Assembly (NCBI RefSeq): GCF_003334765.1
Contig: NZ_QOWT01000008.1
Reading direction: 5' to 3' (one strand)
From: Escherichia coli
GTDB lineage: Bacteria; Pseudomonadota; Gammaproteobacteria; Enterobacterales; Enterobacteriaceae
DNA length: 64,000 nt
Shown here piece by piece: positions 122 through 337 of this stretch; position 1 is the stretch's first letter, and every line of letters starts with the position of its first letter. The position numbers and the translations under genes are program-made. Below the pieces are notes generated by a model, which had not been told where the DNA came from, searched no databases, and saw nothing but the letters and a program-made list of their open reading frames with translations.

Positions 122-337
122 ATGGAACTGCATTGTCCACAATGTCAGCATGTGCTTGATCAGGATAACGGCCATGCGCGTTGCCGATCCTGCGGGGAAT
201 TTATTGAAATGAAAGCTCTTTGTCCAGACTGCCATCAACCGTTGCAGGTGTTAAAAGCCTGTGGTGCAGTAGATTACTTCTGTCAGCACGGGCATGGCTT
301 GATATCGAAAAAACGCGTTGAATTCGTGCTGGCTTAA
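122..337 (+). CDS. yfgJ: Zn-ribbon-containing small protein YfgJ (71 aa)
   Basis: ORF track 86..337; start reset to MELHCPQCQ... to match the 71-aa protein; two CxxC pairs; ends 4 nt inside the convergent xseA 3' end. Confidence 0.8.

Follow-up and report, generated by a model that had tools for sequence, protein, structure and literature searches.

Convergent gene pairs whose coding sequences share a few nucleotides at their 3' ends have been described as a class of gene overlap. In E. coli, 58 convergent overlaps were counted (Lillo & Krakauer, 2007, PMC2174442); there is a known excess at a length of 4 nt, and the tetramers that permit two convergent stop codons to interlock are CTAA, TTAA, CTAG, and TTAG (PMC2174442). 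The terminators of such genes necessarily lie within the coding sequence of the partner, and an intrinsic terminator is predicted for only 20% of the genes in convergent overlaps (PMC2174442).

Three further systems bear on how transcripts meet at such a junction. Bidirectional intrinsic terminators show the symmetry of an A-tract, a palindrome and a T-tract, with a compact GC-rich stem-loop that a U-tract directly follows on either strand. Classical excludons, for example those of Listeria, carry long antisense 3' or 5' UTRs, and reciprocal repression of the two genes has been demonstrated for them. On a genomic scale, ExcludonFinder was applied to 58 RNA-seq sets of MG1655 and reported 165 convergent excludons that occur in 50% or more of them, xseA-yfgJ included (PMC12288877, Table 1). 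Lastly, Rho suppresses antisense read-through, which is seen as a drop in coverage that is sensitive to bicyclomycin (BCM) and lies in C>G-rich untranslated RNA after a stop codon (Adams et al., 2021, PMC7815308).

Here we compare the junction of yfgJ and xseA with these systems. The window is a stretch of 64,000 nt of E. coli DNA, and positions refer to it unless a genome or a comparison locus is named. The overlap of the two genes is already known: it stands in the RefSeq annotation, its class has been described (PMC2174442), and the pair is on the published excludon list (PMC12288877). We consider it probable that the junction is an ordinary interlock of stop codons on TTAA, spacer-less since the ancestor of the Enterobacteriaceae, formed between two drifting protein tails, with no canonical terminator, and with Rho acting on the yfgJ side.

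The stop codons of yfgJ and xseA interlock on TTAA

The window opens with the end of der, followed by yfgJ, xseA, guaB, and guaA. This is K-12-type DNA, and MG1655 is 100% identical to the window over nt 1-1900. yfgJ (122-337, + strand) encodes a double zinc-ribbon protein of 71 aa and is present both in the list of open reading frames and in RefSeq; xseA (334-1704, - strand) encodes the large subunit of exodeoxyribonuclease VII, of 456 aa. The MG1655 RefSeq annotation, converted to window coordinates, gives both genes the same limits. Positions 326-342 read GTG CTG GCT TAA TGC AC. On the + strand yfgJ ends with GCT (332-334) and TAA (335-337), and on the - strand xseA ends with CAT (the complement of 337-339) and TAA (the complement of 334-336). 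Read directly, the TTAA at 334-337 therefore holds two interlocked TAA stops, one for each strand, and constitutes a 4-nt convergent overlap of the coding sequences in which one base of each stop belongs to the last sense codon of the partner gene. The sequence-only reading had described just such an overlap of the two 3' ends, and the sequence, the open reading frames and RefSeq all confirm it. Where E. coli genomes have the K-12-type junction, the overlap is kept, at identities as low as approximately 95%.

The assignment of the two products to a zinc-ribbon protein and exonuclease VII, also made from the sequence alone, proved correct. YfgJ is identical to the protein of PDB entry 2JNE, 'hypothetical protein yfgJ', over residues 1-71 (E 2e-47), and the structure of its Salmonella homologue is 2JRP. 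XseA matches the TIGR00237 equivalog over its full length with 538.8 bits, where the cutoff is 180. These matches also bear on whether the overlap is an annotation artefact, arising from a wrong stop or from a spurious gene. Only the small size of yfgJ would speak for such an artefact. Given that the stop codons are unambiguous in the sequence, that the structure of YfgJ has been solved, that XseA is a full-length equivalog, and that both open reading frames are conserved throughout the Enterobacterales, we regard the artefact as refuted and give it practically no chance of being real.

yfgJ/xseA is a plain, ordinary member of the class of 4-nt tail-to-tail overlaps. It has the opposite strands, the facing 3' ends, the length of 4 nt and the TTAA tetramer of that class (PMC2174442), any terminator must lie inside the coding sequence of the other gene in both, and we find no material difference. 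The window has eight convergent pairs, with spacers of -4, 92, 38, 137, 37, 109, 98, and 94 nt, and no other pair among them overlaps. In itself the overlap is of little importance, being a compact gene junction of textbook type.

The palindrome around the stops resembles a bidirectional terminator in layout only

The absence of a terminator between the two genes, another element of the sequence-only reading, is borne out: there is zero spacer, and a consensus scan of positions 1-2000 returned 0 sites resembling an intrinsic terminator. A search of the same 2000 nt against Rfam at a permissive setting gave 0 matches, that is, no known RNA element at the junction.

The stops are enclosed, on both strands, by a weak, interrupted palindrome (308-361), which consists in order of A6 (308-313), CGCGT (314-318), GTGC (326-329), GCAC (339-342), ACGCG (349-353), A (354), and T7 (355-361). 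It folds with -15.6 kcal/mol on the + strand (z -2.4) and with -13.2 kcal/mol on the - strand (z -1.8). Because this layout, non-canonical as it is, is that of a bidirectional terminator, the terminator reading was tested in four ways. It would have the two coding tails form a working bidirectional intrinsic terminator, with A6-CGCGU...ACGCG-A-U7 on the yfgJ mRNA and the mirror image followed by U6 on the xseA mRNA, such that both transcripts would end approximately 25-30 nt past their stops and would overlap by only about 55 nt. The symmetry of A-tract, palindrome and T-tract around the stops and the two folding energies agree with this, as do two observations described below, namely a 40% drop in coverage that remains under BCM and a relative that has a true bidirectional terminator at the corresponding position, in a spacer of 33 nt.

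The stem itself argues against it. U-tracts are present, but the outer stem has 5 bp closing an interior of 30 nt, whereas the real terminators of the window (after guaA at 5027, and at 38133 and 15728) are compact GC stems abutting the T-run. In addition to the failure of the consensus scan, a survey of all 64 runs of T6 or longer on both strands of the window, ordered by how stably the preceding 44 nt fold, placed the two junction runs 13th and 23rd, with many coding-internal runs equal to or better than them. The arms of the palindrome are explained by coding: AAAAAACGCG specifies the conserved KKR of YfgJ, and CGCGATTTTTT is the antisense of SRKK in XseA. The same arm motifs occur in the island-bearing haplotype of E. 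coli NC101, where they lie 11.6 kb apart. Across genera the YfgJ-side arm is kept, along with the conserved residues that it encodes, and the T-run side and the 3' arm are absent, such that neither conservation nor covariation of the stem is found in relatives. Within the species, strain 20AH011 carries a synonymous change of GCAC to GAAC that breaks the inner stem without compensation. Furthermore, no 3' end is mapped there by Term-seq, and a ribosome terminating at either stop would be expected to cover the hairpin.

The junction thus shares with bidirectional intrinsic terminators the symmetrical arrangement, centred on the overlap, but its stem is interrupted, weak, placed inside two coding sequences, not conserved, and free of mapped 3' ends. 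On the strength of the T-run survey, the comparison between genera and the variation within the species we downgraded the palindrome as a terminator, and we consider it unlikely that the two tails work as one. Most likely the palindrome follows from the coding of two basic protein tails, and at best it is a weak aid to pausing or termination.

A second structure lies inside the 3' end of xseA. It is a 9-bp inverted repeat (GGCTGGATG / TATCCAGCC) with a 17-nt loop (365-399, arms 365-373 and 391-399), which folds with -13.4 kcal/mol (z -4.6), is followed by no U-tract on either strand, and has one arm mutated in O157. It could serve as a stem that protects the 3' ends of Rho-terminated yfgJ transcripts.

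Rho ends most transcription that runs from yfgJ into xseA

With no canonical intrinsic terminator to stop it, RNA polymerase continues into the opposite gene, and published data document this for the yfgJ direction. Supplementary file 2 of Adams et al., 2021 (PMC7815308) contains a Rho-dependent region at genome position 2635510 on the '-' strand, annotated 'antisense xseA', with a score of 3.80 (p 2.3e-6). Reads in the 800 nt upstream and downstream of this position number 110 and 17 without BCM and 126 and 74 with BCM (PMC7815308). We converted genome positions to the window with w = 2635937 - genome (+/-1 nt), a relation that we derived from the xseA-internal entries of those tables and checked on guaB, whose 3' end it places at 3341, 9 nt beyond the stop codon. 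The BCM-sensitive region then maps to about 427 on the + strand, roughly 90 nt past the yfgJ stop and inside xseA, a position that is approximate because the Rho score is based on 800-nt windows.

This peak lies within the untranslated tail of the yfgJ-direction transcript (338-493, + strand), which is antisense to xseA and has a C/G ratio of 1.3-1.8 in 78-nt windows. Such C-rich, G-poor untranslated RNA is the composition expected of a Rho loading region. The locus resembles the described cases of Rho suppression (Adams et al., 2021, PMC7815308) both in its BCM-sensitive drop on the yfgJ strand, antisense to xseA, and in the C>G-rich RNA after the stop codon; here this concerns an approximate region and the yfgJ direction. 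Read-through on the yfgJ side is real but short, and these BCM data show that it is ended largely by Rho. Coverage still falls by approximately 40% in the presence of BCM (126 to 74), so a factor besides Rho must contribute, for example a weak intrinsic signal or RNA decay. In the xseA direction we infer termination purely by analogy with the yfgJ side; the RNA antisense to yfgJ, into which xseA read-through would extend, is mildly C>G (1.1-1.7).

The sequence-only reading had further claimed that the transcripts of each gene must run into the other. The part of this that stands is the overlap of the mRNAs, which is forced by the geometry and reflected in the place of the pair on the excludon list. 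The extent needs qualifying: from the yfgJ side it is limited, as Rho largely ends the run about 90 nt past the stop.

In the Term-seq tables of Adams et al. no 3' end is assigned to yfgJ or falls at the 3' end of xseA, which may simply be due to the weak expression of both genes, and the TERMITe supplements contain no entry for yfgJ or xseA. At the other end of xseA, Term-seq gives ORF-internal 3' ends at 1685 and 1648 (- strand; genome 2634252 and 2634289), approximately 20 and 57 nt into the gene (Adams et al., 2021, PMC7815308), which points to early termination or to processing near the beginning of the xseA mRNA.

Upstream of yfgJ, the published rifampicin/collision study reports events only inside der and places der and yfgJ in one segment. 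The spacer between der and yfgJ contains a perfect 14-bp stem-loop (74-105, + strand) with no U-tract, and the spacer as a whole folds with -27.3 kcal/mol (z -5.3). NC101 has an equivalent 14-bp stem of different sequence (locus L005, 13700-13740, - strand; z -4.6). The counterpart of this hairpin has a T-run behind it in Buttiauxella, Atlantibacter, UBA5654, Erwinia, and Pantoea, where it forms a canonical der terminator. By this comparison the Escherichia hairpin resembles a terminator whose U-tail has been lost, so that transcription could read through from der into yfgJ.

The spacer between the stops varies around zero in the Enterobacteriaceae

A scan of one genome per species by alignment to YfgJ yielded 55 loci, and 21 genomes in which yfgJ directly faces xseA were used to compare the spacer between the two stops. 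It is -17 nt in K. pneumoniae, -4 nt in E. coli and, on CTAA, in Leminorella, +1 nt in two Citrobacter, +3 nt in Buttiauxella, +4 and +5 nt in Atlantibacter and Pluralibacter, +6 nt in a Klebsiella MAG, +13 nt in two Enterobacter, and +33 nt in UBA3516; Yersinia, Limnobaculum, and the Enterobacteriaceae MAG UBA5654 have spacers of 43-109 nt. A near-zero spacer (-17 to +13 nt) without a terminator thus appears to be ancestral in the Enterobacteriaceae. YfgJ is conserved through ..ISKKRVEF and then continues with 2-6 variable residues, and the C-terminus of XseA is a variable, basic tail of low complexity whose length and sequence differ between relatives. The exact value of the overlap looks like the product of drift of the stop positions in these two variable tails.

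Only one of the relatives compared, UBA3516, has a clean bidirectional terminator (A6-GCCGCA-CTCAGA-TGCGGC-T6). It occupies almost the whole of the 33-nt spacer (locus L020, terminator 4220-4249 in spacer 4217-4249).

Three other loci of the scan deserve a remark. The overlap in K. pneumoniae ATCC 13883 is an apparent convergent overlap of 17 nt (L028, 3703-3719). In Shimwellia pseudoproteus an apparent overlap of 143 nt (L026, 4083-4225) may be the result of an assembly frameshift in a G-run. A contig end assigned to 'Candidatus Ligilactobacillus excrementavium' (L055, 4001-4108) codes for YfgJ residues 1-36 with 100% identity to E. coli K-12, preceded by an identical upstream spacer; to judge from this identity the MAG is almost certainly contaminated with E. 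coli DNA.

An island separates the two genes in about a third of E. coli

Among 5426 complete E. coli genomes, 3668 have the K-12-type junction, and in 1665 (~31%) yfgJ is followed by AT-rich DNA and sinH. In E. coli NC101, an example of this island type, the order is der, yfgJ, sinH, sinI, and a gene for a 2683-aa adhesion protein (ratA-like), after which xseA follows in the facing orientation. The island of NC101 measures 11.6 kb (locus L005, 1812-13471) and corresponds to the site 334-343 of the window. The region 'xseA..yfgJ' has been described under the name of ila cluster, a relative of the CS54 island that lies beside xseA in Salmonella (PMC12928451, PMC3591323).

XseA of NC101 has 458 aa and ends in ..RKSRKKTSNP*, with its stop 68 nt from that of the adhesin. 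A REP-like palindrome (GCCGGATGCGATGCTGGCGCCTCTTATCCGG; L005, 1813-1880) takes in the last xseA codons together with the TAG stop.

The two haplotypes diverge strongly near the junction and much less elsewhere. YfgJ has 63% protein identity between them; xseA is 45% identical over its last 77 alignment positions (1301-1377), 74% over positions 1201-1300, and 97% over its first 100 nt; and few aligned positions differ at the end of der. The K-12 overlap is accordingly the form that the site takes without the island. From the tight junctions of other genera, which lack an island, we infer that the island-free state is probably ancestral. The island-bearing strains also show that the interlocking of yfgJ and xseA is dispensable.

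Origin of the junction and the case for antisense regulation

We propose the following model for the junction. The spacer between yfgJ and xseA would have been near zero since the ancestor of the Enterobacteriaceae. Because YfgJ and XseA both end in short, poorly constrained tails, their stops would be able to wander by a few codons, and in E. coli they would have come to rest on TTAA, one of the four tetramers where two stops can coexist. For want of a canonical intrinsic terminator, each RNA polymerase would enter the opposite gene. As the published data show, Rho ends most transcripts from yfgJ, or from der-yfgJ, within approximately 100 nt, while they run antisense to the 3' end of xseA as C-rich RNA that is not translated; xseA transcripts may end in the same way inside antisense yfgJ, possibly aided by the weak hairpin and its U6. 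Both mRNAs would then have a short complementary 3' region in common, which would explain the listing of the pair as a convergent 'excludon'.

The sequence-only reading had gone further and held that the arrangement allows antisense interference between the two genes. The geometry permits such interference, which we treat as a possibility only and as unproven. A literature search found no functional antisense interference between YfgJ and exonuclease VII, and no reciprocal repression, exclusive expression or RNase III duplex processing for xseA-yfgJ. Although the pair itself is on the published list of convergent excludons of MG1655 (PMC12288877), ExcludonFinder asks only that transcript ends defined by coverage overlap, and overlapping coding sequences bring this about automatically. 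Unlike the classical excludons, xseA-yfgJ has only its transcript overlap documented, and the length of that overlap is limited by Rho.

That genus after genus has a spacer-less junction could be due to selection and not to neutral evolution, and the arrangement might then be kept as a regulatory excludon in which the two genes repress each other through polymerase collision or RNase III cleavage. The listing of the pair in most MG1655 RNA-seq sets and the tight junction (-17 to +13 nt) in many genera of the Enterobacteriaceae are consistent with this, and two reports document collisions at convergent E. coli genes in general (10.1101/2022.10.23.513370, PMC10349824). However, the island parts the two genes in ~31% of E. 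coli and in Salmonella with no apparent harm, Yersinia and others have spacers of 43-109 nt, Rho cuts short the antisense read-through, the listing demands no more than an overlap in coverage, and the literature search found no report of anticorrelated expression. We therefore think it quite improbable that selection for mutual repression maintains the junction.

More speculatively still, the two tails could be jointly regulatory, either as an embedded bidirectional terminator or through an obligatory 3' duplex. The spacer-less junction would then have been kept in the Enterobacteriaceae for this reason, exonuclease VII would be coupled to der-yfgJ, and the island would uncouple them in pathogenic lineages. 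We rate this combination as very unlikely.

Our preferred reading remains that of an ordinary stop interlock between drifting tails. The existence of two forms in E. coli, one interlocked and one separated by the island (~31%), provides a clean natural test case, if one of modest value, and pangenome expression data could show whether minimal convergent overlaps affect expression. One island-type strain has undergone a further change: in E. coli E06 an ISKpn26 element (IS5-like) truncates both yfgJ and sinH (locus L063, 3012-5971), which indicates that yfgJ can be lost in an island-type background.
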